Of a DNA stretch of 32,000 bases, positions 1 through 29,301 are shown in pieces (position 1 is the first letter of the stretch; each line of letters begins with the position of its first letter). The stretch is from NCBI RefSeq assembly GCF_900232105.1, contig NZ_LT934425.1:2910001-2942000 (forward strand). The letters are read 5' to 3'. This DNA is from Candidatus Kuenenia stuttgartensis. Its GTDB lineage: Bacteria; Planctomycetota; Brocadiia; Brocadiales; Brocadiaceae. The position numbers and the translations under genes were made by a program. The notes below the pieces were generated by a model. It made no database searches and was not told the DNA's origin. It saw only the letters and a program-made list of their open reading frames with translations.

Positions 1-782
1 TTGAAAACTTTACCTTCTTTAACACATTAGCCGGCTATGGCATTACTGACTATTTATCCCTCTATCTTGTGATGCCTTATGCTATTAAAGAACAAGACTC
101 CTTAGGCACATCGAAGGGGTTTGGTGATGCTGGATTTTTAGTACAATACGGTTTTAAGTACGGCGAGAGAAACGGGATTCGGGGTTTTTATAATAACGGC
201 CCGGAAGATACTATTGGAGAAAGTTACACGACTAATGATCTGAAAATGTCGGTTTTAGGGGGTTTTACTGTTCAGACCGGTGATATTACAAACGAAGATA
301 ATAATGGCAACAGGTTTGACATGGGCATGCAGACAGGTTTTGCCGCGCCAACGTTTATGACAGGTTTCTCCGCATCAAAAATGCTTTTTCAGCACTTTAC
401 TCTTACCGGGGAGACATCATTTACCACCTTTACCCGTCATGATGACGGTAAACCTGGAAATGAGATCCGTTTCAATCTGGCCGGAGGGTATGAAATATTT
501 GAAAATCCTCAGGGATTTTTCCAAAGGGTAGATATTATTACTGAATCAAACTTCCTCCATCTGACAAAAGATGAAGACGAACACCATCACGATGAAGATG
601 ACAGCGGGGGAACGATTCTGTATCTTTCACCTGGCTTTCGCGTTTCTCTTAAGAAAAATATCAGTATCGGAGGGCTTCTGAAATTTCCCGTATGGAAGGA
701 TTTGAACAGGGAATCGGAGCAACAGGGCGCTGAAGGACTTGAACACTATAGGGCAATTCTCACCGTGACATATTCTTTTTAA
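1..782 (+). CDS. Outer-membrane beta-barrel protein, 5'-partial (MetA-pathway/transporter-like porin type)
   Basis: The frame of the listed ORF (69..782) stays open back to nt 3, so the gene runs off the left edge. Gly/aromatic-rich alternating strands and a terminal ...TVTYSF typical of OMP barrels. Acidic/His loop DEDEHHHDEDD. Confidence 0.6.
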   Translation, partial: ENFTFFNTLAGYGITDYLSLYLVMPYAIKEQDSLGTSKGFGDAGFLVQYGFKYGERNGIRGFYNNGPEDTIGESYTTNDLKMSVLGGFTVQTGDITNEDNNGNRFDMGMQTGFAAPTFMTGFSASKMLFQHFTLTGETSFTTFTRHDDGKPGNEIRFNLAGGYEIFENPQGFFQRVDIITESNFLHLTKDEDEHHHDEDDSGGTILYLSPGFRVSLKKNISIGGLLKFPVWKDLNRESEQQGAEGLEHYRAILTVTYSF

Positions 783-852
783 GGACGCCAACCCTGGCAG
801 GGTTTTCTGGTCAATAATACCTTAAACCATTTATAGAGAAGGAGGAAAAATT

Positions 853-1422
853 ATGCTAAAAACACGAATATGGAAAAAGCAGATGATTGCAATACTTTTT
901 TGGGCTTGTTGTACATTTCTGTCTCATCAAAAATGCATATTTGCACATGAAGGCCATGACCACTGGAGTAATACCCCTATAACCATTAAAAGATCGACAG
1001 TAGTGCATTTGCAGTCGCTATTGGAATCATATGATCTTCTCTACAAAAAACTTATAGAGAAAGATATCCAAAATATTCCTGTATTGGCGCAAAATATTAT
1101 GGATGCTGCGCAACAGGGTGTTCAAACTGAAAATAAAGGTGAGGGGCGTTATATGATGGAACATATTTTTCAGCATGCGATATCTCTTAAAGAATGTGAA
1201 ACCCTGGAAAATGCAAAAGAATCTTTAGGGTTAATAAGCCGTGAACTGTTTCCGTTCTTTATTGCATGGCCAATGCAGCTTAAAGAAAACAAGTTAAGGC
1301 TTTATCATTGTAAAAATGATGAAAAATACTGGTTTCAGGCAGAAAATAGCGCTCCAAATTGCCCTTATGCTCACGATGAATTATCAACATGCATTATTAT
1401 TGAGGAAGTAGCGTATAAATGA
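853..1422 (+). CDS. Secreted His-rich protein, DUF3347-like (putative periplasmic metal-binding)
   Basis: GGAGG-type SD before the ATG. N-terminal hydrophobic signal followed by HEGHDH. The helical middle and the C-terminal C..Y.....W......CPY......C pattern resemble DUF3347, recalled from memory. Confidence 0.45.
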   Translation: MLKTRIWKKQMIAILFWACCTFLSHQKCIFAHEGHDHWSNTPITIKRSTVVHLQSLLESYDLLYKKLIEKDIQNIPVLAQNIMDAAQQGVQTENKGEGRYMMEHIFQHAISLKECETLENAKESLGLISRELFPFFIAWPMQLKENKLRLYHCKNDEKYWFQAENSAPNCPYAHDELSTCIIIEEVAYK

Positions 1423-1829
1423 ATTGAACGACCATCTTTGCTTTAGAAAAACATGACAGTCTTATGACACCGTGTGCCCATAATTGGTCACTGTTTATAT
1501 CAAGCCTTGCAGGATAGATGCGACTTTGTGTCTTAAGAAAAAAAACCGATGCGTGACCATTTATAGTCTTTCTGCGTTCTCATGTACTAATTGCATCTTT
1601 TTTGTGCTGTAATCGTAACATATTTAACAGTAGTAGCTTGTGCTTTCTTTGGTTGTGGTGGTCGTGTTGTTTTTTTCGAAATGGCGCACTTCTTGCTAAG
1701 TGTTGTTACATACAAAGTGTTTTGTTGTGTATTATTTTGCGCAGAATTTTTTACGGAAGGGGGGTGAATGTACGGACGCATTTAAGTGTAAAAGCAGAAA
1801 TTTTCGTGAGTTAGGATTGAGCAGATGTT

Positions 1830-2993
1830 ATGAATTTTGAAGGAGGTAAGCGAAGAATTATGATACGAAAGGGAATGATAGGAGCGGTGATGCTTGGAGC
1901 TGCGGTAGCGATAAGTGGCGGAGTAGCGACTGCGGGGTATATACAGGGTACGCATGTAAAGACGGATTTACCCGGGCCGTTTCACATAACGATGTCGCCG
2001 GATGGTAGTACGTTATTTATATCGAATCAATCTGGGCACAGTGTAACGTTTGTGGATGCAAGGACGCAGAAGGTAACGGGTGAGGTCGCTGTGAGGGTAC
2101 AGCCTGAGGCTTCAGCGGTTACGCCTGACGGGGCATTTTTGTATGTATGTAATGCAGAGAGCGACAGTGTATCGGTAGTGGACATACAGAGGAAGCAGGA
2201 GATCAAGGAGATAAAGGTAGGTGACTGGCCGAGCGGGATCAAGATTTCGCCTGATGGCAAGACTGCCTATGTTGCATGTTCCGGTTGCATGTGGAACGCG
2301 ATTGATGTAATTGATACGGGGAGGATGGAGAAGGTAAGGTCGATATATACTTCAGATTACGGTCCCAGGATGGTGGAGATATCTCCTGATGGGAAGACCC
2401 TTGTTGCGATACTTGACACGGTAGGATCGATCAACCGGAGCGTTGATTTTATTGACATTGCCAGTGGCAGGGTAGTAGAGAACAGGGTAATCCATGAGAG
2501 TTCCAACCTGAGGGATGTTGTATATACGCCGGATGGTAAATACATAGCTGTAACCCACCAGACGCCGAAGAACTGGTTGCCGGTATGTGAAGCGGAGAAT
2601 GGTCAGGTATTTACGAACAACGTAACAATCATAGAGACCAAGGCCGGTGGTAAGGTAGCGAGATTACCGTTGGACGATCTCAACAATTACGATGGCAATC
2701 CGTATGGTATGGCGATGGACCCTAAGGGCAAGTATTTGTACATTGGGGTAAGAGGGATGCATCGTGTAACGATACTGGATATGGATAAGGTATTGGGTCT
2801 GGTGAGGAGCAGCACGCAGGAGGAGCTTGATTATCTGAGGGACGACCTTGGGTTGGTAAGAGATTATCTTGTTGCCAGGGTTCCTACGGGTCTGGGGCCA
2901 AGTTCGGTATGTTTATCACCTGACGGCAAATTTTGTTATGCGGCCAACTATTTTTCCAACAATGTAACCGTGATAAGGACTGCGGTTGATTAA
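1830..2993 (+). CDS. hzsB: Hydrazine synthase beta subunit (heme-free 7-bladed YVTN beta-propeller)
   Basis: Signal/TM N-terminus. Seven YVTN-type repeats (MSPDGSTLFISN, VTPDGAFLYVCN, ISPDGKTAYVAC, ISPDGKTLVAIL, YTPDGKYIAVTH, MDPKGKYLYIGV, LSPDGKFCYAAN). No CXXCH. Sits directly upstream of hzsC/hzsA. AGGAGG at 1841-1846 suggests the true start is the in-frame ATG at 1860. Confidence 0.9.
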   Translation: MNFEGGKRRIMIRKGMIGAVMLGAAVAISGGVATAGYIQGTHVKTDLPGPFHITMSPDGSTLFISNQSGHSVTFVDARTQKVTGEVAVRVQPEASAVTPDGAFLYVCNAESDSVSVVDIQRKQEIKEIKVGDWPSGIKISPDGKTAYVACSGCMWNAIDVIDTGRMEKVRSIYTSDYGPRMVEISPDGKTLVAILDTVGSINRSVDFIDIASGRVVENRVIHESSNLRDVVYTPDGKYIAVTHQTPKNWLPVCEAENGQVFTNNVTIIETKAGGKVARLPLDDLNNYDGNPYGMAMDPKGKYLYIGVRGMHRVTILDMDKVLGLVRSSTQEELDYLRDDLGLVRDYLVARVPTGLGPSSVCLSPDGKFCYAANYFSNNVTVIRTAVD

Positions 2994-3035
2994 GGATTGT
3001 ATGGAGTGTGAGAGTTATTTATTTTTGGAAAACAA

Positions 3036-4097
3036 ATGGCAAGAGAAATGAGATTAGGAGGAAAAGAAAGAATGAAGACAGGAGTAGTGAAAATAGGATT
3101 AGTTGCGGCCCTGGGGGTAGTGGGGCTGATATCGGCGGGCGGCGTATATGCCGGTCAGCCGCGGGTAATTTCCACGATCCAGACGGGAGCTACGTGGGAA
3201 CCGCTGGGAAGGGAAGAACCTTTGACGGTGCCGGAAGTGCATTTTCGTGTAAAGCATTCACCTTTTAAGAGTGAGCTGGTAAGATACGGGCAGTTCCAGT
3301 TTAACGATGCAGCGTGGAGTTTGCAGGGATCATACTCATGCGCCAGTTGTCATTATGAGAGAGGCCAGACAACCGGTTTGATTTGGGATTTGGGAGATGA
3401 AGGATGGGGTAGCTGGAAGAACACGAAGTATATTCGTGGCGGCCGATATCTTCCTCCGTTCAGGCATGAGGGGTTCACTGGTCATCCTGATGAAATAGTA
3501 GGGGCAACCAGTTCACTTGACAGGGTATGTGGAAGGGATCCTGGATTTGTGTTCAGGAGTGAGAATTTTTCTCCGATGAGATTAGAGGCGCTCATTTGTT
3601 ACATCAGGGCGTTGGAATTTACCGGGAGTCCATTCAGGAATGCGGATGGGAGTTTAACCGAAGCCCAGAAGAGGGGTCAGAAGATATTTGAGGATCCGAA
3701 GGTAGGATGTCTTGAGTGTCATCCTGGCGATCCGATGGATCCGAGGGCATTGTTCAGTGATGCACAGACGCATGATGTAGGAACCGGCAGGGTAGGTGTA
3801 AATGGTTTCAGGTCAACACCTGGGAAGGTATTTAACATATCGGCGTTAGAGGCAGGTGAGGATCCATATGGTGTTGAGAGCAACACGCCGATCATTGGAT
3901 TGGATCTTGTGAAGGAATTTGATACGCCGACATTGAGAGACATCTATGCATCAGGCACCTATTTCCATGATGGTGGTGCAAGGACATTGATGGACACCAT
4001 AAACAACACGGTAAATGATAAGGACATGCATGGAAGGACGTCTCATTTAAAGCAGCAGGAGCTCCAGGATTTGGTGGAGTACCTGAAGGCGTTATAA
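3036..4097 (+). CDS. hzsC: Hydrazine synthase gamma subunit (di-heme, cytochrome c peroxidase/MauG-like)
   Basis: Two CXXCH motifs (CASCH 3339-3353, CLECH 3708-3722). CCP-type motif TPTLRDIYASGTYFHDGG. Signal peptide. AGGAGG at 3056-3061 favours the in-frame ATG at 3072 as start. Confidence 0.9.
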   Translation: MAREMRLGGKERMKTGVVKIGLVAALGVVGLISAGGVYAGQPRVISTIQTGATWEPLGREEPLTVPEVHFRVKHSPFKSELVRYGQFQFNDAAWSLQGSYSCASCHYERGQTTGLIWDLGDEGWGSWKNTKYIRGGRYLPPFRHEGFTGHPDEIVGATSSLDRVCGRDPGFVFRSENFSPMRLEALICYIRALEFTGSPFRNADGSLTEAQKRGQKIFEDPKVGCLECHPGDPMDPRALFSDAQTHDVGTGRVGVNGFRSTPGKVFNISALEAGEDPYGVESNTPIIGLDLVKEFDTPTLRDIYASGTYFHDGGARTLMDTINNTVNDKDMHGRTSHLKQQELQDLVEYLKAL

Positions 4098-4170
4098 GAG
4101 AGAAGTGTATGAATGTGTAGTATAAGCGATAAAAATTTAAGGACAATAAGTGAAAGGAGAAGGCCAATAG

Positions 4171-6600
4171 ATGGGTAAGAGGAAATTAGGAGTGATAGCA
4201 TCGGCGTTTGTAGCGGGTGCGTTGGTCTGTGGGAGTACCCTTGTGAATGCTGAGCCTGTAATGACAGGCGGCCCGGTGCAGGGGAAGGCCTTATGGACTG
4301 ATTATAGTGGGATGTCAAAAGAGGTGCAGGGTCCTGTGAGTCAGATATTGTTTACGCAGTCGCCGAGGACAGCCAAAGGGGATCCGTACCAGAACTATCC
4401 GCACTATATACCGGAAGGAAGCCGGATAGTGTTATTTGATTTAAACACAAAGGAATTGAAGGTATTGACCAATGATTTTGCAACAGCCTTTGATCCATGC
4501 ACCTATTGGGACGGCAAGAAATTTGCGTTTGCCGGGGTACACAAGAAAGGCGGCGGGTGCCAGATATGGGAAATGAACATAGATGGCAGTGGTTTAAGGC
4601 AGATGACTGATCTTAAGGGAACCTGCCGTTCACCGATTTATTATGCAGCGGGAAGTATTGAAGAAGGCGAAGGCCGTATCATATGGCGTGACCGGTATTT
4701 TGAAGGGGACTGGAAAGAGCATGGCATGGTAGAGAAGACGGGCATGATAATATTTTCAGGTTCACCGGAAGGCGTAATGGATGAGTTCCACAATCCATAT
4801 GCGTATAATCTTTACCGTTTGGATACGCAGGGCGGTAAGATCATACAGAGAATCACCGGACACGTGCTATCTGGCATAGAGTTTCCGCACCTCAATACCA
4901 CGATAGACCAGATCACCTACAATTTAAGTTCCAACTTTGATCCATGGTTAACTCCTGACGGAAACATCCTTTTCTCAAGCGTGCAGGCAAATGGCAGCAG
5001 GGCTGGCGGAGAAGGCAGGGTGATGATTTGTGTGGACAACTGGGATGGTGCGTATCCAAGGCCTATCTATGGAAACTGTGATGGGGAAATCGGTGGCACC
5101 AGCGGAAGGTCTCAGGCGAAGATCACCTTTGGAGACAGGAAGATTGTCTATGTTGAGTCTCCGTACATGAATTGGGGCGTAGGTCAGTTGGCAGCGGTGA
5201 GCTGGGATGCTCCGTTCAACAAGACGTATGAGAAGTTGACAGGAAAAGATGGTGGATTGTACAGGAGTCCATATCCGCTTCCGGACGACAGGATGTTGGT
5301 ATCCTATGCAGAAAGAGGGGATTTTGGCATATACTGGTTTAATTTTAGCAAATGTGCTGCAGGGGACAAGGTATATGATGATCCTAACTGGAATGATCAC
5401 CAGCCTGCGCCGGTTTATGTGAAGTACAAGCCAAGGTGGATTAACACCTTTACCGCCGGTAAGAACTTTGGTGTAACGGTCGTAACGTATCAGCCGTTTG
5501 ATCAGGTGAAGGTGGAAGGATATCCGCATTCATGGGGAACATGGATATGCTTTGATACGACATTGTCGGATCAGCCTGTAGGTCCTTATCCGCATCAGAA
5601 GGCAAAAAACGTAAGCCATGGAGATATCAAGGCAGTAAGAATCATCCAGGGATATCAGTGTGTAGAACCGGATTCAACCCGTTTCAGGGTAGGAGCTGGA
5701 GCACATCTTCTTGGTGGAGAGAGATCAAGCAGCAATTCAGGTACAGCATTTCAGCAGAGGGGTATCATCGGGTATCAATATGTAGAGAGCGATGGTTCAA
5801 CAGTTACATCCCAGCTTTCAGATGTTCCTTATTACATGCAGATATTGGATGATAAGGGTATGTCTGTACAGACTGCTTTAACCTGGGCATATTTGAGGCC
5901 ATATCATGGCAGGATTTGTAGTGGATGTCACTATGGATCATATCGTGGAAGGGCGTTCAAGAACATCCATGCAAAGGCGTTGTACAACTGGTGGTATGAT
6001 GACAGAAGCCACTATGATTCACCATTTGCGTTCAGGTATTTGAAGTTTGACAACGATGGGAATTACAAGGGCGTAAAACATGGAGAGGATGTAGTAGTAC
6101 CATCTGACATTTACTATGGTGGTCCATCCGGAACGACATCACAGCCGGTGGAAGGATTGACGCTGGATAAGCAGAGGACGGTGGATTTCCGCAGGGACAT
6201 TCAGCCGATACTTGATGCGAAGTGTGCGATGTGTCATGATTCGAACAATCCTCCGAACCTTGGTGGCGGATTGGAATTGGTAAGTGTAGATGGTATAGCA
6301 GCATACAGTCGTGCATACAACAGCTTGCTTGAGCCGCAGAGGGGGAAAGACCCGAACATTGGCGGAAAATATGTTAATCCGTCAGCAGCGATCAACAGTT
6401 TGTTGGTATGGAGGTTGTATGAAGCTGAGTTAAGCGCGAATGCTCCCAGGGAGAAGATATTCCCGATAGAGGGTCGTTTATTGCACAATAAATTCCTTAC
6501 TCAGGATGAGAGATATGCGATAGTAGAGTGGATAGACCTGGGTGCGCAGTGGGATAACATTCCGGGACCAGATTTTTATCCTGGATATCTTGTAAAATAA
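4171..6600 (+). CDS. hzsA: Hydrazine synthase alpha subunit (propeller plus two c-type heme sites)
   Basis: 809 aa with SD AAGGAGA at 4154-4160 and signal peptide MGKRKLGVIASAFVAGALVCGSTLVNA. CXXCH at 5917-5931 (CSGCH, codons 583-587, followed by YGSY) and at 6223-6237 (CAMCH, codons 685-689). Size, order and heme count match HZS-alpha. Confidence 0.92.
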   Translation: MGKRKLGVIASAFVAGALVCGSTLVNAEPVMTGGPVQGKALWTDYSGMSKEVQGPVSQILFTQSPRTAKGDPYQNYPHYIPEGSRIVLFDLNTKELKVLTNDFATAFDPCTYWDGKKFAFAGVHKKGGGCQIWEMNIDGSGLRQMTDLKGTCRSPIYYAAGSIEEGEGRIIWRDRYFEGDWKEHGMVEKTGMIIFSGSPEGVMDEFHNPYAYNLYRLDTQGGKIIQRITGHVLSGIEFPHLNTTIDQITYNLSSNFDPWLTPDGNILFSSVQANGSRAGGEGRVMICVDNWDGAYPRPIYGNCDGEIGGTSGRSQAKITFGDRKIVYVESPYMNWGVGQLAAVSWDAPFNKTYEKLTGKDGGLYRSPYPLPDDRMLVSYAERGDFGIYWFNFSKCAAGDKVYDDPNWNDHQPAPVYVKYKPRWINTFTAGKNFGVTVVTYQPFDQVKVEGYPHSWGTWICFDTTLSDQPVGPYPHQKAKNVSHGDIKAVRIIQGYQCVEPDSTRFRVGAGAHLLGGERSSSNSGTAFQQRGIIGYQYVESDGSTVTSQLSDVPYYMQILDDKGMSVQTALTWAYLRPYHGRICSGCHYGSYRGRAFKNIHAKALYNWWYDDRSHYDSPFAFRYLKFDNDGNYKGVKHGEDVVVPSDIYYGGPSGTTSQPVEGLTLDKQRTVDFRRDIQPILDAKCAMCHDSNNPPNLGGGLELVSVDGIAAYSRAYNSLLEPQRGKDPNIGGKYVNPSAAINSLLVWRLYEAELSANAPREKIFPIEGRLLHNKFLTQDERYAIVEWIDLGAQWDNIPGPDFYPGYLVK

Positions 6601-6660
6601 GAGAGGTTATTAACAGCATTTTATATAGTTGTGGTAAGTAGTAAGAGGTAAAACAAGCGA

Positions 6661-6703
6661 AGAGCCGGGGAAAAGTGGCAAAACCACGTCCCGGCTCTTT
6701 GTG
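6661..6703. terminator. Hairpin terminator between convergent hzsA and dinB
   Basis: AGAGCCGGG (6661-6669) pairs with CCCGGCTCT (6690-6698). An inner GTGG/CCAC stem sits in the loop, and TTGTGCTT follows. Confidence 0.55.
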
Positions 6704-6759
6704 CTTCCAGAGAGATTTGCATGTTTACCGAATAAGCATGAAGCACAAAATATGATATG

Positions 6760-7745
6760 TTATGACGGTTTCTTTTTCCTCACCTGATTGGCAAAATTGA
6801 TGCATTTAATACCTTTTGGCCTCCATGCCGGAGAAATGACGCCTTTATGGTGGTAACGATTCATCAGCGTGCCAGATGTGATACTGAATTCCCCATAACG
6901 GTTGTTTATCTCGTCCATAACACGCACAACTTTTTGCTTTGTCCTTTCTGCCGGGAAAAGGGGTATTTGTGTATAATCCTTGTGCAGGTTGCTTAAGCAT
7001 ACTCCTAGTAACCGTATCGGATGGCAAGGTCTGGTAGCATTCAATATATCACAGGCAACGAGATAAATATTTAATCCGTCATTTATTGGCGTTCCAATGG
7101 TTTTACTTTTGGTAAGGGTGCTGAAATCCGAATAGCGGATGGTGAGGGTTACCGTTCTGCCGGAATACCCCCCTTTACGCATTCTCCGGCCAACCATTTC
7201 TGACAATTGAAGAATCATTCTTTCAATGGTTTCCTTATCGAGGATGTCTTTTTCAAGGGTCATGCTGTGGCCTACCGATTTTGCGTCAGATTCTTTTTCT
7301 GACGGTATTACGGGACTATCATCAATCCCCTGCGCTATAAGTACCAAGCGTTCGCCGATAATGCCGAATGTGTGTTTTAACTGCGTTACCTGTGCCCGCC
7401 CGAGTTCTCCGCATGTGGTGATTCCAATAGCGGCCAGGTGTTTTGCCAGTTTTGGACCGATTCCCCAGAGTTCCTGTACCGGCAAGTTTTCCAGCAATGA
7501 ACGGATGTCTTTTTCTTCTATAATAAAAAGTCCGTCGGGTTTTTTCATATCGCTGCCAAGTTTTGCCAGGAGTTTGTTTGGGGCAATGCCGATGGAGCAG
7601 GTCAATCTTCCAAGGTGTTTGTGGATATCCTGTTTTATTTTCTTTGCAATATGCTCTATGCTATTAAAAAGAGGAATAGAACCGGCAATATCAAGGAATA
7701 CCTCGTCGACAGAATATACTTCAATAGCGGGGGTGTAGCGCGAAT
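6760..7745 (-). CDS. dinB: DNA polymerase IV (Y-family), exon 2
   Basis: YSRYTPAIEVYSVDEVFLDIAGS, GIAPNKLLAKLGSDMKKPDGL and the little-finger region are typical DinB. This is the in-frame continuation of the exon 1 protein across the intron. The listed ORF 6760..7806 includes intron-derived codons at its 5' end. Confidence 0.85.
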
Positions 7746-7893
7746 AGCTGGTAGGCTGGAGGCCATTAGCCTCCAACCCCCACTCGTCGCCAGATACTTT
7801 GGACAACGTGACAAAGCATCCTTTTTAAACCATACGTCTTTCTCGTAGTCAGCGACCCCGAAGTGTTGCTCTATAACAGAGAAAAGTCAAACA

Positions 7894-8187
7894 TCATGCT
7901 TTAGCACACGCCTTAAGAAATTCTCTTTCGAATGAGAGTAACCCCATTTTAAAGAATCGGTGAACAGGGAAACGCTTGTTGTCTGTTCTCCATTTTCTTG
8001 AGAACTTGAAACATCTCAGTCTCATGCGTACCCAACAGTCTAATGAGCGATATACCTTTTGTACATTGCCCAGCCGAAAATAGTTGACATGCCCACGAAT
8101 TACGGGGTTTAATGTATCAACGATGGCTTGCAGATTGACGCCCTGTGTACGTCTGGTGATGTCTCTGATGTTGTTCCTTCGGCAGGC
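7894..8187 (-). pseudogene. Maturase (X) domain of the intron-encoded protein, in frame directly after the TGA at 8188-8190
   Basis: My manual translation gives ACRRNNIRDITRRTQGVNLQAIVDTLNPVIRGHVNYFRLGNVQKVYRSLDCWVRMRLRCF... (97 codons, stop at 7894-7896). This is the classic X-domain motif NP.IRGW.NYF. It is not in the ORF track because it has no early start codon. Confidence 0.75.
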
Positions 8188-9084
8188 TCAGGACAGGCTC
8201 TTGAGTTTGTTCAGTGATTTCGTGCTTATACCCTTATACTTGCCCTTGGAATCGTATCCGAGAAACCTGAAACCTCTTTCGAAGTTGGCGAGCTTGGTTT
8301 TATCCTCGCTCAGCTTCATTCCAAGTTTCCCTGCAATGATTTCTTTGACATAGCTGAGGGCGGCTGGGAGTTCATCTTTTGTTTTAGTCATGACAACGAA
8401 ATCATCGGCGTATCGGACAAACTTATATCCAGCCTTTTCAAGTTCCTTGTCGATGATGTCACCGATAAGGTTTGCAAGCAAAGGGGAAATGACGCCTCCT
8501 TGCGGAGTGCCTTTGTTTGTCTCGTGCACGATGCCGTCCTCCATGACCCCTGCTTTGAGCATGTTCTCAATACTGTTCAAAACCCATCCATCAGCGATTT
8601 TCTCACGTAAGGAGTCCATAATAAGCTTATGGGGTATGGTGTCATAGAATGCCATTATATCGGCATCAAGGACGCTGGTATACCCTTCCTGCTTATACTG
8701 TTCAAGCCGTTTGATAGCATCGTGACAGCATCTGTCAGGGCGAAATCCAAAGCTGTTATCTGAGAATCCTTTCTCAAATATTGGCTCTATGATTTGCCTG
8801 AACGCCTGCTGTACAATCCTGTCCTTAACAATGGGAATGCCAAGAGGTCTCTTGTCATGCCTGCCTTTGGGGATGTATACCCGCAGGACAGGCGCAGGGT
8901 TGTATATGGCAGTCTTGAGTTCCTGATGGATACTCATGATATTCACATCAAGATTGGACTCAAATTGCTTAATACTTACCCTGTCAAGACCAGCTTTGCC
9001 TTTATTCTTCTTTACGTGTTTGAAAGCAGCATAAAGGTTTTTCAGACTAAACACCTTGTCTCTTAATGAATGATACTTAAGCAT
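8188..9084 (-). CDS. Group II intron-encoded reverse transcriptase (RT domains 0-7), ends at an in-frame TGA
   Basis: RT motifs: RPLGIPIVKDRIVQQA, FGFRP, LDADIMAFYDTIPH, GTPQGGVISPLLAN, YADDFVV. Confidence 0.9.
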   Translation of the reverse strand: MLKYHSLRDKVFSLKNLYAAFKHVKKNKGKAGLDRVSIKQFESNLDVNIMSIHQELKTAIYNPAPVLRVYIPKGRHDKRPLGIPIVKDRIVQQAFRQIIEPIFEKGFSDNSFGFRPDRCCHDAIKRLEQYKQEGYTSVLDADIMAFYDTIPHKLIMDSLREKIADGWVLNSIENMLKAGVMEDGIVHETNKGTPQGGVISPLLANLIGDIIDKELEKAGYKFVRYADDFVVMTKTKDELPAALSYVKEIIAGKLGMKLSEDKTKLANFERGFRFLGYDSKGKYKGISTKSLNKLKSLS

Positions 9085-9773
9085 CTCTCGATATATTCCT
9101 TTCGATTGATTACGGATAATAGACTTGTCAATCGTGTTTCCTGGGTACGGATTCTCCCAAACATAGGCAAAACAAGAGAGGCTCTTGTTACTGCTTACCT
9201 ACGCAAAAGAGTTTCTTTTCTCATTGAACGTATTCAATCTACCACTTTCATCAATTCCACTACGGTTATGCCCCTTTCATTTCCGATTCACACCGGAAAC
9301 TATTATGAGCAATGCTGACGACTTCAAAGATAGACTTGTGAGAGAAGCTTGTCTATCACCATCTCATACAGCTCGGACTTCGGAATTTCCTTATACCTTG
9401 CTGTTAGGGAATTTTGCCCAAGGCGTAAGTCCTCCCCCGGTCATATGGATTACCCCTTTTCCCTTCGTGATGTATGTTCAAACGCATTAACCAGAGATGG
9501 TTTTACTTAATCTGTTTATCCATCTCCAACAAAGGACATTGTCAGTGCTTCGCTGAGAAATGGCAGTTGGCACGGAATAACACGCCACACTCATACACCC
9601 CAAAAGGTCGTCTGTACCTCGTAACTCCGTCATACCCCTCACGGGTATATGCTATCTTTCTACGCATACGGATTGCTCCATTGTGTGCGCATAGGCACAA
9701 ACTTCTCTACGAGGATTAGGCTCGCAGAGGTGGTATTTTCAACCACTCAGGTATTCCATACTTCAAGGCACAC

Positions 9774-10065
9774 ATATCTCTACAAGCCTGCGACAGGTAT
9801 CTGTATAGCGGCCGGTATTACCTTCCACCAATATAATATGAGGACACAGCCGCTTCGCCTCATATTTAGTCATACCCGTTTTGACGCCGTATTCCCGTGC
9901 TTCATAAGAAGACGTGGTAACGACCGTTCTTTCATTGGAACCGACCACCGCAATGGGTTTTCCCCGCAAGGATGGGTTTATCTGCTGCTCAACGGAGGCA
10001 AAGAAGGCATCCATGTCGATATGCATAATGGTTCTTTGTGAGCCATTGACTTGTGAGGGTTTCAC
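9774..10065 (-). CDS. dinB: DNA polymerase IV, exon 1
   Basis: MHIDMDAFFASVEQQINPSLRGKPIAVVGS...YEAREYGVKTGM is the DinB N-terminus with the catalytic DMD. The start may be the upstream M (10065) or MHIDMD. Confidence 0.85.
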
Positions 10066-10534: not shown

Positions 10535-10990
10535 TTAAGCAGCGATTTTTTTCTTAAATCGAGCGGATTTAATTTTAAAATATTCTTGTGAGAGTTTTTC
10601 GTTCTTTGATAAAGCGTTTGTTGATGAGAATTCAAGCAGGGAATTGATTGCTTTTTTGAATTCATTAAAGGTAGAAGGTTTTGTTTCCATGATTTTATCC
10701 AAATAAGCATTTTGTTTTATCCAATAAACGAACGTCCATGAGATCAGACAAATATTCCAATACCGCTCAATCTTGTTAATGTGCCTTACCTGAGAATGAT
10801 CAAAATAAAAAGTATCCTTCAATTCCTTGAAACAGTGTTCAATGCTCCAACGCAACAGATAGTTTGTGATAACCGTTTTCATAGAGGCATCGAGTTGGTT
10901 GGTGATAAGGATATGATGTTTTTTGTCATCTTCCCTGTTCCATTTTCCCAAAATTATCATAAACTTCAAATGGACATTCATTGCAACCAT
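10535..10990 (-). pseudogene. IS701/IS4-type DDE transposase, C-terminal fragment
   Basis: YLLRWSIEHCFKELKD matches the Y-2-R-3-E-6-K signature of IS4-type DDE transposases. Confidence 0.7.
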
Positions 10991-12372: not shown

Positions 12373-12909
12373 TCACCACCAATGTGCCGGATAATCTCTC
12401 TTCATCGCCTTATTAAAGATAACCGCTATCACCACCATGGTAAACACTCCCAGAACGGTGGGATTCAGGATAAAAAGATACCCGACACCCAACCCCCCCG
12501 ATTGAATAGCTACATATGCCGTTGCGCCTGCCGGGGGGTGTACCGAGTACGTCACAAACATAAGAACAACAGCAAGGGCAACGCCAAGCGCAAGCGACCA
12601 CCACGTCACGCCAAATAAATCATAGATAATCACCCCGATACTTGCGCCAAGAAAATGCCCCATCAGAACATTCCTTGGCTGTGCCAGGGGCGACTTATAC
12701 GCACAATAAAGCAATGGTGCGGTAGATCCTAAAGACCCTAATAACATCGGACAATTCCATGTAAAGGCCAGTATCGCCGTTACCCCTATCCCAAGAATCG
12801 TTCCCCAGAGAGAAAGCCACGTCTCTCTTGTGGTGAGCACGGGTTGCGGCGCTCTGGGTAACTTTTTTACATACACACAAAATTTATTTATTCCATTCAT
12901 TACCAGCAT
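12373..12909 (-). CDS. HPP-family integral membrane protein (putative nitrite/anion transporter family)
   Basis: Diagnostic motifs SPLAQPRNVLMGH and HPPAGATA. Four to five hydrophobic helices. Confidence 0.85.
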   Translation of the reverse strand: MLVMNGINKFCVYVKKLPRAPQPVLTTRETWLSLWGTILGIGVTAILAFTWNCPMLLGSLGSTAPLLYCAYKSPLAQPRNVLMGHFLGASIGVIIYDLFGVTWWSLALGVALAVVLMFVTYSVHPPAGATAYVAIQSGGLGVGYLFILNPTVLGVFTMVVIAVIFNKAMKRDYPAHWW

Positions 12910-13472: not shown

Positions 13473-13950
13473 TATTTGATTCTGTATTTTAAAATCTTCC
13501 TACACAGTGTCGTTGTGGATATTCCAGGCACCTGCGAAACCTTTGTTTGAATTACCACCGTATTTGTTCATGGCCTCAATAATGGCATTTTTTTCCTGTT
13601 CAGCAAGGGTAGTAACAATAAATGTTTTCCTTCTCTCATCATCTTACGGATTTCTGGAAAGTGCGACAAATTCTTCCACGGTAACTGGAAGCGGAAGTTC
13701 ATCAATATTCATTATCTCGCTTTTAGACAATGCAACTGCTATTTCTATCATATTCTGCAGTTCCCTGATGTTGCCTGGCCAGTCGTAATTCATAAATGCG
13801 TACATCGCCTCTTCGGAGAACACTCTTTTAACCTTTTTAAATTTTTCTAAAATTTTCTCTAAAAAATACTCCACTAAAAACGGAATATCTTCCCTTTGCT
13901 CCCTCAAAGGAAGAATATGAACACGTATTACATTAGATCCGAGAAAACAG
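13473..13950 (-). pseudogene. Sigma-54-dependent transcriptional activator, C-terminal remnant
   Basis: NVIRVHILPLREQREDIPFL...YDWPGNIRELQNMIE (AAA+ lid). In-frame TAA at 13644-13646. The Fis-type HTH (GISTTTLCRKILKYRIK*) is only readable after a frameshift. The receiver and Walker regions are missing, cut off at the IS fragment. Confidence 0.75.
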
Positions 13951-13965
13951 ATCTTTTCTAAATAT

Positions 13966-14754: not shown

Positions 14755-15969
14755 ATGGCGCGGTTGAAGCAGTTGATAGAGTTTATTAAGCGAAGAAAAA
14801 AGCTGGTAGGCTTCTTCTCCATAATTGTTCTCGTTGTTTTTTTCGTCACGTTAAATAAAGTATACCACTATTCGGAGACAAACGAGTTTTGTGCAAGCTG
14901 CCATGAAATGGATATCCATTACGAATCTTTTATGGCGTCGAAACATAATAATGAACATGTTGAACATTGTCACGCATGTCATGTGGGGCCTGGGCTGAAA
15001 GGTTACGCACACGCAAAGTTAAGCGATGGAACGCATGACTCCTTAATGCATTCATTTCAAGCCTTTTCCGACGGTTCACTCATTGAGGTTGCCGAAGACA
15101 GCATAGAGATAATAAATGGTAATTGCGAACGTTGCCACGCGGAAGGTTTTACAAAAGACAAGACGCATATCGAGTTTGTTGCAAAGAGTAGCAAGCACAG
15201 TAAGGATGGAAGGGAACTAGAAAAATTAATGTGTACCGATTGTCATTTAGGCGTTGCGCATCCGCACATGCCAGGAGACCTTTACGAGCTTTATGCCGAA
15301 AAAAAGGTGAAGCCCTATGGCAAATATAAAGAAACGGATTGTTTTGCATGCCATAAGATAGCTACTCCCGATGTCATAAAGCAATGGACGGGAAGCCCTC
15401 ATGCTGCAAAAGGGGTAACCTGTATTAGCTGTCACGGCGATGACCATGGATATATCACAAAGCGACACGGTCGTGTGTCAGCGAGCGCTTGTGGAGAATG
15501 TCACATGGCTCAATTTACAGAGTTCCAGGAAAGTTCTCACCTCCAGGGACGTACGGTGGCATTTGGTGGTACGTATGATGTGATTACTACAAGGCAGCTT
15601 AGTATGGAAGGTTGCAAAGAGTGTCATAAGCTGGGTTTAACATATGAAGACGACAGGGTTGGTGGAAGTTGCAATGCATGTCACGGAAGCCATAAATTTT
15701 CTACCGTCGAAGCGATGGCTTATGACGCGTGTGAAAAATGCCATATTGGCGGACCGGAACATTCCCAGTTAAATTCAAGCGAAAATTCCGTTTTTGGAAG
15801 GGTGCAAAAGATGCGTAGTCAGGGATTAATCTCTGACGATCTGGTGAAATGCCAAGCATGTCACGGACCTAATAAATCCCATAATTTCAATAAAATATCA
15901 ATCCCTCAGGAAATCGATGTGCTACTTTTCGGGGGGCACGGGTTAGTAAAAGTACCGGAAAATCATTAA
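14755..15969 (+). CDS. Membrane-anchored undecaheme cytochrome c (NapC/NirT-type tetraheme module fused to a 7-heme domain)
   Basis: AGGAGG SD and an N-terminal TM helix. 11 CXXCH: CASCH, CHACH, CERCH, CTDCH, CFACH, CISCH, CGECH, CKECH, CNACH, CEKCH, CQACH. FCASCHEM and MCTDCHLGVAH are NapC/NirT hallmarks. Confidence 0.9.
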   Translation: MARLKQLIEFIKRRKKLVGFFSIIVLVVFFVTLNKVYHYSETNEFCASCHEMDIHYESFMASKHNNEHVEHCHACHVGPGLKGYAHAKLSDGTHDSLMHSFQAFSDGSLIEVAEDSIEIINGNCERCHAEGFTKDKTHIEFVAKSSKHSKDGRELEKLMCTDCHLGVAHPHMPGDLYELYAEKKVKPYGKYKETDCFACHKIATPDVIKQWTGSPHAAKGVTCISCHGDDHGYITKRHGRVSASACGECHMAQFTEFQESSHLQGRTVAFGGTYDVITTRQLSMEGCKECHKLGLTYEDDRVGGSCNACHGSHKFSTVEAMAYDACEKCHIGGPEHSQLNSSENSVFGRVQKMRSQGLISDDLVKCQACHGPNKSHNFNKISIPQEIDVLLFGGHGLVKVPENH

Positions 15970-16121: not shown

Positions 16122-18047
16122 ATGGGGAAAAATATAGTTCAGAAGATTTTAAGTTCACATCTTGTTTCCGGCAGACTAAAAGCAAAAACCGAGATTGCGA
16201 TTGTTGTTGATCAAACCCTTACTCAAGATGCAACAGGCACGATGGCATATTTACAATTTGAGGCAATGGGGTTGCCGGGGGTAAAAACGAAGTTATCGGT
16301 GAGTTACGTTGATCATAATATGCTTCAGGCCGGATTTGAAAACTTTGATGATCATTTATTTTTGCAAAGCTTTGCAAGCAAATATGGCATATACTACTCT
16401 AAACCTGGAAATGGTATTTGCCACCAGGTACACCTCGAACGTTTCGCTGTGCCTGGTGGAACATTGTTAGGTTCCGATAGTCATACACCAACATGCGGTG
16501 GGTTGGGGATGCTTTCTATTGGGGCGGGCGGACTTGACGTTGCAATTGCAATGGCCGGAGGGTCATTTTATTTCTCAATGCCGGAAATTGTATTGGTAAA
16601 ACTCTCCGGGGCCTTGTCCCCCTGGGTTACAGCAAAAGATGTAATCCTTGAATTATTAAGAAGACTTACGGTAAAAGGCGGCGTCGGGAAAATCTTTGAA
16701 TATGGAGGAGAGGGAGTCAAAACGCTTACGGTAACAGAACGTGCAACTATTACCAATATGGGCGCGGAGCTTGGCGCCCTTACCTCAATTTTCCCTAGTG
16801 ACGCTCAGACAAAAAAATATTTAAAAATGCAGGGGCGCGAAGATGTTTGGCAGCCTTTAAAGGCGAGCGCAAACGCACAGTATGATGAAACGGTGGAAAT
16901 TGATCTTTCATCCCTGGAACCAATGGTAGCGAGGCCGCACAGTCCGGATAACGTCTGCAAGGTGAGAGAGATCCAGGGGACTATGGTACATCAGGTTTGC
17001 ATAGGCAGTTGTACTAATTCATCTTATCACGATTTAATGGTAGCGGCGGCAATGTTAAAAGGGAAAAAAGTTCATCCGGACGTCAGCCTAACCATCTCCC
17101 CCGGATCACGGCAGGTACTGGAAATGATATCGAAAAACGGGGCATTAACAGATATAATTGCCGCCGGAGCAAGGATATTGGATGTTGCTTGCGGACCATG
17201 TATCGGAATGGGGCAAGCACCGCCTTCCGGAGGCGTCACTGTCCGGACATTTAACAGAAATTTTGAGGGACGAAGCGGAACCCTTGACGCAAAAGTCTAT
17301 CTGGTAAGTCCGGAAACCGCGGTCATTACTGCAATAAGAGGTGTGATTAGCGATCCAAGAGATTACGACATGCCCATTATTATTAAAGATCCGAAAACAT
17401 TTTTAATAGACGACAGCATGATAATCCCTCCTTCTGAAAATCCTGCACAAGTAACCATAATCAGAGGCCCTAATATTAAACCTTTGCCTAAAAAAGAACC
17501 CATGCCGGATACGTTGCATGGTGAAGTCCTTTTGAAACTAGGGGATAATATCACCACCGACCACATTATGCCGGCAGGCGCCAAGGTCTTGCCCCTGAGA
17601 TCAAATATTCCCGCTATTTCTGAATTTGTGTTTGAAAAAATTGACAAAGAGTTTGCGAAACGGGCAAAAGAAAAAGGTGGCGGTTTTTTGGTCGGCGGCA
17701 TAAATTACGGACAAGGTTCCAGCAGGGAACATGCAGCGCTTGCCCCGATGTATTTGGGTGTGAAAGCTGTTATTGCAAAATCTTTTGCGCGCATTCACCG
17801 GTCAAATCTCGTTAATTTTGGCATATTGCCATTAACCTTTACCGAAGAAAATGATTACCTCGTGCTGGACCAGGGAGATAGTTTAGAATTAGTGGATATT
17901 AAGAAGCAATTAAAACCTGGCGGTATCCTTGTTGTTCATAACCGGACAAAAAATAAAGAAATCAAGGTAACGCACCTGTTATCATCCCGCGAAATTGATA
18001 TCCTTTTCGCAGGAGGCCTGTTAAATTACCAGGCACAAAAAAATTAA
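16122..18047 (+). CDS. acn: Aconitate hydratase (short, about 640-aa type)
   Basis: Aconitase family motifs: DHN, GSDSHT, CIGSCTNSS, CGPCIGMG, NRNFEGR. C-terminal swivel domain with GSSREHA. Confidence 0.9.
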   Translation: MGKNIVQKILSSHLVSGRLKAKTEIAIVVDQTLTQDATGTMAYLQFEAMGLPGVKTKLSVSYVDHNMLQAGFENFDDHLFLQSFASKYGIYYSKPGNGICHQVHLERFAVPGGTLLGSDSHTPTCGGLGMLSIGAGGLDVAIAMAGGSFYFSMPEIVLVKLSGALSPWVTAKDVILELLRRLTVKGGVGKIFEYGGEGVKTLTVTERATITNMGAELGALTSIFPSDAQTKKYLKMQGREDVWQPLKASANAQYDETVEIDLSSLEPMVARPHSPDNVCKVREIQGTMVHQVCIGSCTNSSYHDLMVAAAMLKGKKVHPDVSLTISPGSRQVLEMISKNGALTDIIAAGARILDVACGPCIGMGQAPPSGGVTVRTFNRNFEGRSGTLDAKVYLVSPETAVITAIRGVISDPRDYDMPIIIKDPKTFLIDDSMIIPPSENPAQVTIIRGPNIKPLPKKEPMPDTLHGEVLLKLGDNITTDHIMPAGAKVLPLRSNIPAISEFVFEKIDKEFAKRAKEKGGGFLVGGINYGQGSSREHAALAPMYLGVKAVIAKSFARIHRSNLVNFGILPLTFTEENDYLVLDQGDSLELVDIKKQLKPGGILVVHNRTKNKEIKVTHLLSSREIDILFAGGLLNYQAQKN

Positions 18048-23156: not shown

Positions 23157-24479
23157 GAGTTGTCAGATAATAACTTTTACAACTATGGCGCGGGATAACA
23201 AGGTGTGAATGACTCAATTTTTTGAAATTGTATAATTCCAATCTCAATGGAAATTATGCTTTCCAATATTAATCTTTTCCATTTCCTGATCGGAAACCTT
23301 TATCCCTGTTGGATATTTCCTTTTGTCAATTTTAACTACAACCTTCAATCCGGTTTTTGTTTTTGTTGCGCCAATTAAATTAACCATAACATCATGGCTG
23401 GTCAGCGGATGGCCTTTCCAATTCATGCTAATATGAGAAAAAAGTCTATGTTCAATTTTGTTCCATTTACTTGTTCCTTTAGGAAAATGGCATACTGTAA
23501 TTTCCATGCCTGATTTATTTGCAAATTCTTGTAGTTTGATTTTCCACAGGCGAACTCTATAGCCGTCACTGCCACCACTATCTGCACATATCAACAGCTT
23601 TTTTGCATCAGGATAAATCTTTCTTCCCATATAAGTCCACCACCTATGAATGCTTTGTACTGCAAAATCTGAGGTATCATGATCGCATCCGACATTGATC
23701 CAACCTAAATTTTTACCCTGATCATAGATGCCATAGGGGATGCCTATTTCTTTTCCTTTGGGATCAGGGAAATCTCGACCATTAACTTTTCGGGGAGAAC
23801 CTTTTTTCCGCCATTCCTGCCCTTTGTTTGCATAGTTTCCCAGCAATTCCTTCTTTTTAGTGGCAACAGAAATGACAGGAAAATTGTCTTTTAAAAACTT
23901 TTTTACTTGCATAGTGATATACTTGAATTGTGCATCACGATCAGGATGAGAATCTTCCAAAGATTTATCATTACCTTGAAGACTATACCCAAGTTGTTTA
24001 AGAATGACTCGAATTGTTTCGTAAGAAACTTCATATCCTTTTTTATAAAGCTCCTCGGATAAATGACGCGTACTTTTAGAGGTCCATTTCAGTGGAGACA
24101 TTGGGTCCCCTCGGGTAGAATCTTCAATTAACGACTCAATTGTTTTTAATAATTTTTTGTTTTGAGCATGTTTGGGTTTAGGGTCGCCACCAGAAACTCT
24201 CACACTCTCACTGGCATTATTCCCTCCACTCTCTAAATCAGATATCCCCTGATGGATAGTAGGCCTGGATACGCCTGCAAGTCTTGCGATTTTAGAAATT
24301 CCACCATAGCCAATAGATTTTGCTTCTGCCCCTAAAAAGATTCTCTTTTGTCTTTCATTTAAAAAGGGTAAAATATCATTGATTTTTTCTTTAAGTTTTT
24401 CGGTAGACATAAAAACTTTTTAGCCGATTCCAGAATATATTTCAATCCAAAGTTGTACATGTTATTATCTGACTGCCCC
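23157..24479 (-). mobile_element. ISAzo13-family insertion sequence (1323 bp)
   Basis: Imperfect terminal inverted repeats share GTCAGATAATAAC (23157-... and the reverse complement of ...-24479). Flanked by TAAG (23153-23156 and 24480-24483). An uninterrupted paralogous site gTAAGacc lies at 25460-25467. Confidence 0.85.
23244..24410 (-). CDS. ISAzo13-family (Rhodopirellula-type DDE) transposase
   Basis: 388 aa. N-terminal LNERQKRIFLGAEAKSIGYGGISKIARLAGVSRPTI HTH. C-terminal WNKIEHRLFSHIS motif. Confidence 0.9.
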   Translation of the reverse strand: MSTEKLKEKINDILPFLNERQKRIFLGAEAKSIGYGGISKIARLAGVSRPTIHQGISDLESGGNNASESVRVSGGDPKPKHAQNKKLLKTIESLIEDSTRGDPMSPLKWTSKSTRHLSEELYKKGYEVSYETIRVILKQLGYSLQGNDKSLEDSHPDRDAQFKYITMQVKKFLKDNFPVISVATKKKELLGNYANKGQEWRKKGSPRKVNGRDFPDPKGKEIGIPYGIYDQGKNLGWINVGCDHDTSDFAVQSIHRWWTYMGRKIYPDAKKLLICADSGGSDGYRVRLWKIKLQEFANKSGMEITVCHFPKGTSKWNKIEHRLFSHISMNWKGHPLTSHDVMVNLIGATKTKTGLKVVVKIDKRKYPTGIKVSDQEMEKINIGKHNFH

Positions 24480-24546: not shown

Positions 24547-24885
24547 TCATAAATCTCGCAGGGACTCCACGGTGTTCATGCGTGATGCGCGAAATGCAGG
24601 CAGTATGCCCCCAAGAAATCCCATAAGGAGCGCAAATGCCATTGCCTTGAGAAAGATTCCATGACTAAGCCTGAAGCGGAAGGCGAGTTCTGAAAATGTC
24701 TGGGAATTGGTTGTCGATACACTGATAAATTGCAGCACGGAAGCAAAAGACAATCCGGTACATCCCCCTAAAAAACCAAGAATAAACGATTCCAAAAGAA
24801 ATGCCATAAGGATGTTTACCCTGCCAAAACCCAACGCACGCAATGTGCTAATTTCTGAAGTGCGGTTTGCGACTGCCGCGTACAT
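24547..24885 (-). pseudogene. Duplicated 3' fragment of the FtsX/MacB-type permease gene
   Basis: The 112 aa are nearly identical to the C-terminus of 25528..26694 (AVANRTSEI.TLRALGF...ILPAFRASRMN.VESLR). Similarity stops at the duplication junction (about 24884). Confidence 0.85.
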
Positions 24886-26694: not shown

Positions 26695-26695
26695 C

Positions 26696-29122: not shown

Positions 29123-29301
29123 GCCTCGTCTTCCTCTGGTCTTAGCCAATCTTTTTTAAGAGAAGATTCACTCACAATAGTGATATCGAGCTTTTCCCTG
29201 AGTATCTTTGTCTTTAGAAAATGGACAAAATCTAATACCTCATCAAGAAAAGGTTCTGGAACTTGTTCAATTTCACGTATAAGTAATTCTTTTTTGCTCA
29301 T
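29107..29301 (-). CDS. Type II antitoxin, DUF2281-like
   Basis: GGAGG (29308-29312) sits 6 nt before ATG 29301. MSKKELLIREIEQVPEPFLDEVLDFVHFLK... The 3' end overlaps the toxin start codon (29122-29120). The listed ORF 29107..29496 is an in-frame read-through from the upstream remnant. Confidence 0.7.
   Translation of the reverse strand: MSKKELLIREIEQVPEPFLDEVLDFVHFLKTKILREKLDITIVSESSLKKDWLRPEEDEAWQSL

Follow-up and report, generated by a model that had tools for sequence, protein, structure and literature searches.

No enzyme but hydrazine synthase (HZS) is known to make free hydrazine, and a large part of the N2 produced worldwide depends on it. The closest described system is that of Candidatus Kuenenia stuttgartiensis, which has been crystallised (PDB 5C2V/5C2W; UniProt HZSA_KUEST, HZSB_KUEST and HZSG_KUEST) and corresponds to kuste2859-2861, in the canonical cluster kuste2854-2861 (PMC12053348). 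The beta and gamma genes are known to lie directly 5' of the alpha gene in one operon (PMC12758564). An extra complete hzs cluster was reported in strain MBR1 and described as a duplication (PMC5854607), while the two copies of strain CSTR1 carry the locus-tag sets KsCSTR_12670-12690 and KsCSTR_28190-28210 (PMC12053348). Such copies are described as identical with different surroundings in PMC12758564, where gene conversion and regulators are not mentioned. Here we analysed 32,000 nt of contig NZ_LT934425.1 (positions 2,910,001 to 2,942,000, forward strand), a stretch that we call the window. By sequence comparison, its positions 1830-6600 almost certainly hold a complete, intact hzsB-hzsC-hzsA operon of Candidatus Kuenenia stuttgartiensis. 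This operon is the second of the two full hzsBCA copies found in Kuenenia genomes, of the KsCSTR_12670-12690 type.

A preliminary description, made from the sequence without database searches, had placed three co-directional genes at 1830-6600. The open reading frames (ORFs) lie exactly there on the + strand, at 1830-2993 (387 aa), 3036-4097 (353 aa) and 4171-6600 (809 aa). The genes are as follows, with the domains of alpha named after PMC12758564:

1860-2993 (maximal ORF from 1830), + strand: hzsB, HZS beta, a heme-free seven-bladed beta-propeller (identity to 5C2V_B; NF052340)
3072-4097 (maximal ORF from 3036), + strand: hzsC, HZS gamma, a di-heme protein with a fold like that of cytochrome c peroxidase (CCP)/MauG (identity to 5C2V_C; NF052341)
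4171-6600, + strand: hzsA, HZS alpha, with an N-terminal six-bladed propeller, a middle domain with heme alpha-I and a domain at the C-terminus that carries heme alpha-II (identity to 5C2V_A; NF052339)

The identification was obtained by searching all PDB sequences, with the Candidatus Kuenenia stuttgartiensis enzyme (5C2V/5C2W) as reference. Residues 36-387 of HzsB are 100% identical to chain B of 5C2V (beta, E = 3e-240), residues 40-353 of HzsC to chain C (gamma, E = 1e-223) and residues 28-809 of HzsA to chain A (alpha, E = 0); the next-best matches are generic propellers (E = 4e-40 or weaker) and di-heme peroxidases (E = 1e-7 or weaker). The NCBIfam equivalogs gave 719 bits for beta (NF052340, cut-off 560), 725 bits for gamma (NF052341, cut-off 625) and 1546 bits for alpha (NF052339, cut-off 800, spanning residues 8-806), so that every cut-off was passed in the comparison with crystal chains and marker models that the preliminary description had proposed as its check. 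Pfam places the HZS_alpha middle domain at residues 484-587 of HzsA. UniProt holds the exact sequences as HZSG_KUEST and HZSA_KUEST, and a near-exact one as HZSB_KUEST. The beta product has no CXXCH and carries seven (S/T)PDG-type repeat motifs (at residues 56, 98, 140, 185, 233, 297 and 363), gamma has CASCH at C102 and CLECH at C225, and alpha has CSGCH at C583 and CAMCH at C685. The heme-free seven-repeat propeller, the di-heme protein with CCP/MauG hallmarks and the 809-aa protein with an N-terminal propeller and two CXXCH sites, all anticipated from the sequence, were thus recovered. Nothing that we found contradicts the HZS identification. As had also been recognised, the system is already known: the proteins are those already crystallised and assayed.

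Generic Pfam models match two of the products as well (Lactonase, YNCE and Cytochrom_D1 in beta; CCP_MauG, with 37 bits, and Cytochrom_C in gamma), and distant HZS-like gene pairs have been described in non-anammox Planctomycetota and Desulfobacterota (PMC12758564). It could be argued from this that the genes encode ordinary YVTN/TolB-like propeller and CCP/MauG proteins of a non-anammox organism that merely resemble HZS. We consider this vanishingly improbable, given the 100% identity of the products to the crystallised chains and of the window DNA to a Kuenenia contig. Moreover, residues absent from non-anammox homologues are all kept here (Tyr591, Ser590, Cys303, and gamma His144 replacing Trp); the PDB identities and this check of key residues refute the ordinary-protein identity. 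The gamma subunit does share with the CCP/MauG family two CXXCH hemes and a weak CCP_MauG match, and PDB entries 6E1C, 1IQC and 3O5C are found at E = 1e-7 to 8e-6. It differs from the family by having His144 at the place of the catalytic Trp and an extra heme link via Cys165 and, unlike CCP/MauG, it is the NO-reducing subunit of HZS and not a peroxidase.

The catalytic residues of HZS were located at their published numbers: C303, C583, C586, H587, S590, Y591, C685, C688, H689 and H772 in alpha, and C102, C105, H106, H144, C165, C225, C228 and H229 in gamma. The most characteristic site is encoded at:

5917-5943, + strand: codons of the heme alpha-I site C583-S-G-C586-H587-Y-G-S-Y591, with the Zn-ligating His and the proximal Tyr

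This motif is read exactly as first described, and the roles then given to its residues agree with the literature, in which His587 of the heme alpha-I CXXCH coordinates Zn, with Cys303 as co-ligand, and Tyr591 is the proximal iron ligand (10.1101/2023.01.22.525020; PMC12758564). Heme alpha-II is bound by C685, C688 and H689, with H772 as distal ligand; heme gamma-I by C102, C105 and H106, with a third covalent link from C165 and His144 in place of the CCP Trp; and heme gamma-II by C225, C228 and H229, both alpha-II and gamma-II being bis-His (roles from PMC12758564). The residues of these coordination sites are present in the window, and they would act as established in the literature on the identical protein. 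Likewise, the three products would be exported via N-terminal signal peptides and would form the (alpha-beta-gamma)2 HZS of the anammoxosome, as established on the identical protein. In the published mechanism, NO is first reduced to hydroxylamine with three electrons at the His106-ligated heme gamma-I; hydroxylamine then passes through an internal tunnel to heme alpha-I, where it is condensed with ammonia/ammonium to hydrazine (10.1101/2023.01.22.525020). A loop of the beta subunit borders this tunnel in the published structure. The second half-reaction is experimentally corroborated by a 2026 preprint, in which the isolated enzyme forms hydrazine from hydroxylamine and ammonium, probably on oxidised heme (10.64898/2026.02.25.707902). 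The two-step scheme outlined in the preliminary description matches this current understanding, with the counterpoint that free hydroxylamine as an intermediate is still debated (context of 10.64898/2026.02.25.707902). Catalysis from NO, ammonium and three electrons to hydrazine has been experimentally shown for the identical Kuenenia enzyme (10.1101/2023.01.22.525020; 10.64898/2026.02.25.707902).

The preliminary description had equated the operon with kuste2859-2861. That stands for the three complete structural genes and their mature proteins, which are identical, as are gene order, heme motifs, key residues and cleavage points. It does not stand for the locus, which is the second copy and not the canonical one, differing in everything 5' of the Shine-Dalgarno sequence (SD) of hzsB. 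In Kuenenia genomes the exact HzsA is encoded in two different neighbourhoods; the closed genome of CSTR1 (CP049055.1), for instance, has both (L037, canonical; L038, window-like). In the canonical one, genes for a cytochrome c554-like protein, a multiheme protein, a membrane protein, a sigma-54 response regulator and a 181-aa product precede hzsBCA, this being the kuste2854-2861 cluster as in PMC12053348. In the second one, nikR, cbiM, cbiQ and an ATP-binding cassette (ABC) ATPase gene come first, a small unassigned gene standing where cbiN would be; genes for products of 335 aa and 189 aa come next, then hzsBCA and, convergent to it, dinB. Of these upstream genes the window contains, 5' of hzsB, the 189-aa gene and the 3' end of the 335-aa gene. 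A tblastn search of the window with the five canonical upstream proteins found just a decayed regulator fragment at 13.5-13.9 kb. Thus the window copy has no adjacent electron-transfer module (kuste2854-2856), sigma-54 regulator (kuste2857) or kuste2858, and since equivalents of kuste2854-2858 are absent directly upstream, it is the second copy and not the canonical cluster. Its context matches that of the second copy of CSTR1 (L038), which, like that of MBR1 (PMC5854607), has been reported before (PMC12053348).

The first 16.6 kb of the window, the full overlap with the fetched locus, are 100% identical to a second-type locus on a 522-kb Kuenenia contig (L042; OCTL01000095.1, GCA_900232175.1), in agreement with the anammox host that had been deduced from the operon. 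The second-type locus of CSTR1 is 99.90% identical over 16.6 kb, and several other Kuenenia assemblies share the context. Two features describe how the two copies relate:

1841 to about 6750-6780, + strand: segment about 99.7% identical to the canonical hzsBCA copy, a repeat or gene-conversion tract (megablast against L037, L044 and L046; junction alignments)
6657-6702, + strand: strong hairpin, a putative terminator between the convergent hzsA and dinB (minimum free energy -28.5 kcal/mol, z = -5.2)

The shared segment, of about 4.9 kb, begins at the hzsB SD, takes in the hairpin and ends 150-180 nt after the stop codon of hzsA; 5' of the AGGAGG at 1841-1846 the two contexts have no DNA likeness. 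Within it, the coding sequences are about 99.7% identical and the mature proteins identical, and the second copy of CSTR1 has the canonical version of the 12 nt that precede ATG 1860. None of 200 shuffles folds as well as the hairpin, which is invariant in all six aligned loci, from both contexts; a simple promoter/terminator scan of 1400-6800 did not call it.

Some observations concern the DNA around the second copy. The upstream ORF at 69-782 (+) is the 3' part of the 335-aa protein and ends in YSF, like an outer-membrane beta-barrel, and 853-1422 (+) encodes a 189-aa secreted protein with an HEGHDH motif (UniProt Q1Q0F8_KUEST). Neither protein has a Pfam or NCBIfam match; a metal-related role is possible, because both genes follow a nikR-cbiMNQO nickel/cobalt uptake cluster in the source genomes. 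In locus L042, on the 522-kb contig, positions 188-2748 of the locus, about 5.6 kb 5' of window position 1, exactly repeat window 1-2561. This repeat holds both upstream genes and the first ~730 nt of hzsB, that is, a third, truncated hzsB copy in that assembly, and ends in a called 281-aa chimeric gene with propeller and NikR_C Pfam matches. The hzs coding strand has a strong G-over-C skew at 2001-6000 (0.24-0.32 per kb), and the G+C content is there 0.47-0.49, against 0.33-0.45 in most of the window.

The boundary of the shared segment bears on where translation begins. The ribosome-binding sites are:

1840-1846, + strand: hzsB SD, AAGGAGG, 13 nt 5' of ATG 1860, inside the maximal ORF
3055-3061, + strand: hzsC SD, TAGGAGG, 10 nt 5' of ATG 3072, inside the maximal ORF
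4154-4159, + strand: hzsA SD, AAGGAG, 11 nt 5' of ATG 4171

No SD was found before ATG 1830 or ATG 3036, the starts of the maximal ORFs. Translation probably starts at ATG 1860 for hzsB (M11) and ATG 3072 for hzsC (M13), 30 and 36 nt 3' of those, and the start of hzsA would be ATG 4171. For hzsB this follows from the position of the SD and from the divergence of window and canonical copies 5' of ATG 1860: window HzsB and the reference CAJ73611 are the same from M11 onward and unrelated in the ten N-terminal residues before it, and ATG 1860 is the sole well-spaced start common to both genomic contexts. Against this start, the distance from its SD is at the long end of the usual range. Counted from these starts the spacers measure 78 and 73 nt, so the spacers of about 75 nt first reported, each with its own AGGAG-type SD, hold for ATG 1860 and ATG 3072; the maximal ORFs leave 42 nt in the first spacer. 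Judging from the first residues of the crystal chains, the signal peptides end at beta A35, gamma A39 and alpha A27, and the mature proteins start at G36, G40 and E28. Published residue numbers of gamma follow the 353-aa form (start 3036), and several annotations use a 341-aa form. Both hzsB and hzsC stand directly 5' of hzsA, the one-operon arrangement that characterises HZS, and the order B-C-A is found in every fetched anammox locus that spans the operon.

The locus tags of beta and gamma are given inconsistently in the literature. The accession order (CAJ73611 = HZSB, CAJ73612 = HZSG; UniProt/ENA) fits B-C-A, with beta as kuste2859 and gamma as kuste2860, and PMC12053348 implies beta as the first gene and gamma as the second. 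The tags are swapped in 10.1101/2023.01.22.525020 (beta kuste2860, gamma kuste2859), and in PMC5854607 hzsABC is written for tags in descending order. We treated this conflict as a naming inconsistency, and our mapping comes from the accession order, not from the tags themselves.

Upstream of the shared segment, the 437-nt gap between the 189-aa gene and ATG 1860 holds TGGCGCACTTCTTGCT and a second conserved element:

1682-1697, + strand: candidate sigma-54 (-24/-12) promoter, TGGCGCACTTCTTGCT, 163 nt 5' of ATG 1860 (consensus match and comparison)
1755-1767, + strand: leader block GGAAGGGGGGTGA, SD-like and conserved, with a mini-ORF of five codons after it (ATG 1768, MYGRI and stop)

The pattern TGGCNC-N5-TTGC has one match on both strands of the window, where 0.23 are expected in 32 kb. 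This sole match, TGGCGCACTTCTTGC at 1682-1696, has GG at -24 and GC at -12 with exact spacing. We aligned the regions upstream of second-copy hzsB from five loci, namely the window, a Kuenenia-like metagenome-assembled genome (MAG; L020) and three Brocadia-type loci (L002, L014 and L018). The mean column identity is 54%, and GG (1683-1684) and TTGC (1693-1696) are invariant with exact spacing. About 70 nt 3' of the sigma-54-type site the alignment has another conserved block, GAAGGrGGTG. In the window this is GGAAGGGGGGTGA. In canonical loci the sigma-54-type site is followed by the kuste2858-like gene, whose SD the block resembles; the block may be what is left of the start of such a gene, or an element of the leader. 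In a search of the whole window at the gathering threshold no Rfam family was found, thus no riboswitch or known leader 5' of hzsB, and sigma-70-like matches in the scan of 1400-6800 were no commoner than in shuffles.

The comparison with canonical loci suggests that transcription of the window operon may start at the sigma-54-type promoter at 1682-1697, the main support being that the presence of an activator gene tracks the promoter type. Canonical loci with the regulator gene (Kuenenia, two Brocadia, H5_AMX3 and Scalindua) carry TTGG(T/C)A(T/C)-N5-T(A/T/G)TGC 86-103 nt before the kuste2858-like gene. In one canonical locus the regulator gene is truncated and the site degenerate, and in four canonical loci without the regulator gene the sigma-54-type site is absent, one of them carrying a perfect TTGACA-N17-TATAAT instead. 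The strict sigma-54 pattern has no match in the canonical CSTR1 locus L037; the relaxed TGG-N9-TGC finds the site at its position 7001. This promoter type also fits a report, cited in the context of 10.64898/2026.02.25.707902, that the hzs cluster is upregulated when ammonium is limiting. The Brocadia-type second copies stand directly behind a gene for a sigma-54-dependent response regulator with the GAFTGA motif. Among themselves these regulators share 84-88% identity, against about 40% with the canonical regulator of the kuste2857 type. In Kuenenia, the canonical activator, with its GAFTGA motif, is located elsewhere (L037). At 13542-13964 (-), amid transposase fragments, the window holds a decayed fragment of a sigma-54-dependent activator (AAA_lid_14 region). 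We considered it as a remnant of the second-copy activator; its identity of 34-46% to either regulator type is uninformative, and it is not a recent remnant of either.

A further question is whether the window copy makes any enzyme. It might be a silent or decaying duplicate, or an artefact of repeat assembly, the canonical cluster alone being expressed. The shared segment begins at the hzsB SD and so leaves out the promoter region of the canonical cluster, its regulator gene and its electron-transfer genes; the surroundings are rich in mobile-element debris, such as transposase fragments and an intron-split dinB, and MAG assemblies often break at the hzs repeat. Against this, the closed CSTR1 genome and several further assemblies, made independently, have the same arrangement, and two complete copies are reported for MBR1 (PMC5854607). 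All three ORFs are intact and their proteins identical to the canonical ones, a sigma-54-type promoter element is kept 5' of second copies across genera, and second copies have been retained in at least four lineages. Both CSTR1 locus-tag sets were reported as differentially expressed (PMC12053348), though reads cannot separate the coding regions. Taking these points together, we find a silent duplicate or an artefact very unlikely.

Four genomes (Kuenenia CSTR1, B. pituitae, H5_AMX3 and MFD09964) each have two copies that share 99.8-99.98% identity over 4.8-4.9 kb, whereas the same hzs DNA is just 77-85% identical between genomes. The near-identical block begins at the hzsB start, or just 5' of it, and stops 117-178 nt after hzsA; outside it, the two copies of a genome have different flanks. 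The second loci of Brocadia-type genomes (e.g. Candidatus Brocadia pituitae AP021856.1, L014) resemble the window in having an intact extra operon near-identical to the canonical copy of the same genome, and in the GG-N10-GC (TTGC) sigma-54-type element and SD-like block 5' of hzsB. They differ in having their own sigma-54-dependent response regulator immediately upstream, which the Kuenenia copy lacks. These patterns suggest that the two copies have been kept identical by gene conversion after an old duplication, which is the most economical reading because the second-copy regulator context is orthologous among Brocadia-type genomes.

The within-genome identity could instead reflect an independent recent duplication in each lineage. 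The second copy of Kuenenia has cbi genes and two unknown genes upstream, against a sigma-54 regulator in the Brocadia-type genomes, and could therefore be of separate origin; in addition, PMC5854607 describes the extra cluster simply as a duplication. We think this rather unlikely. The three Brocadia-type genomes share an orthologous second-copy context, judging from the identities of their regulators, and their operons are 80-85% identical between genomes against 99.8-99.9% within them, so that independent duplication would require three insertions, all at one site. In addition, the promoter and SD-like blocks of the Kuenenia leader can still be aligned with those of the Brocadia-type loci. 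In the literature searched, an incomplete body whose silence does not prove novelty, we found no paper describing these sigma-54-type sites, and none on near-identical paralogous hzs operons in four lineages.

We tentatively propose, as quite possible, that anammox genomes carry two hzsBCA operons homogenised by conversion and with distinct control regions, the window operon being a separately regulated dosage copy for the catabolic enzyme that is most abundant in the cell. Conversion would act on a tract that begins at the ribosome-binding site of hzsB and ends shortly after the terminator hairpin of hzsA. The upstream control regions would stay distinct, in Brocadia-type genomes with a sigma-54-type promoter and an NtrC-like activator for each copy. 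In Kuenenia, the window copy would have retained the sigma-54-type promoter and lost the adjacent activator and the kuste2858-like gene, and it might be cross-activated by kuste2857 under ammonium limitation. Several points weigh against this proposal. The putative promoter is a consensus match with comparative support, and no activator gene adjoins the window operon. A Kuenenia orthologue of the second-copy activator was not among the matches listed, which were at least 120, came from Brocadia, Jettenia, Wunengus and Wujingus and were all at least 84% identical, the orthologue being expected below that identity. Finally, the coding identity of about 99.7% makes the expression of the two copies indistinguishable.

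The alpha subunit was also searched in a collection of one genome per species, which gave 36 loci with 61-91% identity in Kuenenia, Brocadia, Jettenia, Scalindua, Anammoxibacter, Loosdrechtia, Wunengus and unclassified Planctomycetota. As expected at the outset, relatives are confined to anammox taxa: every locus belongs to Brocadiia or to unclassified Planctomycetota, with the exception of three contigs (2.6-3 kb). These were binned as Terriglobia, Ignavibacteria and Bacteroidales (L003, L010 and L021), are 81-83% identical to the window HzsA and hold little beyond hzsA. They were most probably mis-binned, the duplicated hzs operon splitting assemblies into contigs that are short and of high coverage. 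Such mis-binned hzsA contigs could mislead marker-gene surveys.

Further features were noted in the rest of the window. The convergent gene at 6760-10065 (-) encodes DNA polymerase IV (dinB, IMS family) and is split by a 2028-nt insertion at 7744-9771, which carries one ORF for a reverse transcriptase (8188-9084) and another for the maturase domain of a group II intron (7894-8169), both in the same frame with an in-frame stop between them. The insertion begins with GUGCC and ends with AU, and its excision restores a stop-free 425-aa DinB (…RRLVEIC/SRYTPAIEVYSVDE…), the predicted exon junction being …GAGATATGT/TCGCGCTAC…. Rfam at E <= 1 gave two chance-level matches in the insertion and no group II intron ribozyme model; we call it an intron because of the reverse transcriptase and maturase domains and the splice geometry. 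Other Kuenenia assemblies (L040, L041) have further insertion-sequence insertions at the dinB region. Transposase genes or fragments (DDE_Tnp_1, DDE_5, Transposase_29) lie at 10535-10990, ~11.4-11.7 kb and ~14.2-14.4 kb. A full ISAZ013-type DDE transposase gene (23244-24410) stands beside a fragment encoding a 112-aa FtsX C-terminus (24547-24885), 3' of which follows a MacB/FtsX-type ABC transporter cluster (25528-28511); this transposase may have disrupted a permease gene. A membrane protein of the HPP family (PF04982, E = 2e-44) is encoded at 12373-12909 (-). Some HPP proteins of plants and cyanobacteria transport nitrite, and the one found here, if it did so too, would be interesting in an anammox bacterium, which consumes nitrite. 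At 14755-15969 (+) lies the gene for a NapC/NirT-like multiheme cytochrome that is anchored in the membrane and has eleven CXXCH motifs; aconitase follows at 16122-18047. Finally, 29107-31149 (-) is a small AT-rich cluster with DUF2281, Schlafen/AlbA_2 and NYN-domain matches, possibly a toxin-antitoxin or defence-type islet.

In summary, the window adds nothing to HZS enzymology; its value is as an anchor that fixes Kuenenia stuttgartiensis and the second hzs copy. Sigma-54-type promoters and near-identical paralogous operons could give anammox researchers testable handles on the control of expression of a slow, hugely abundant enzyme.

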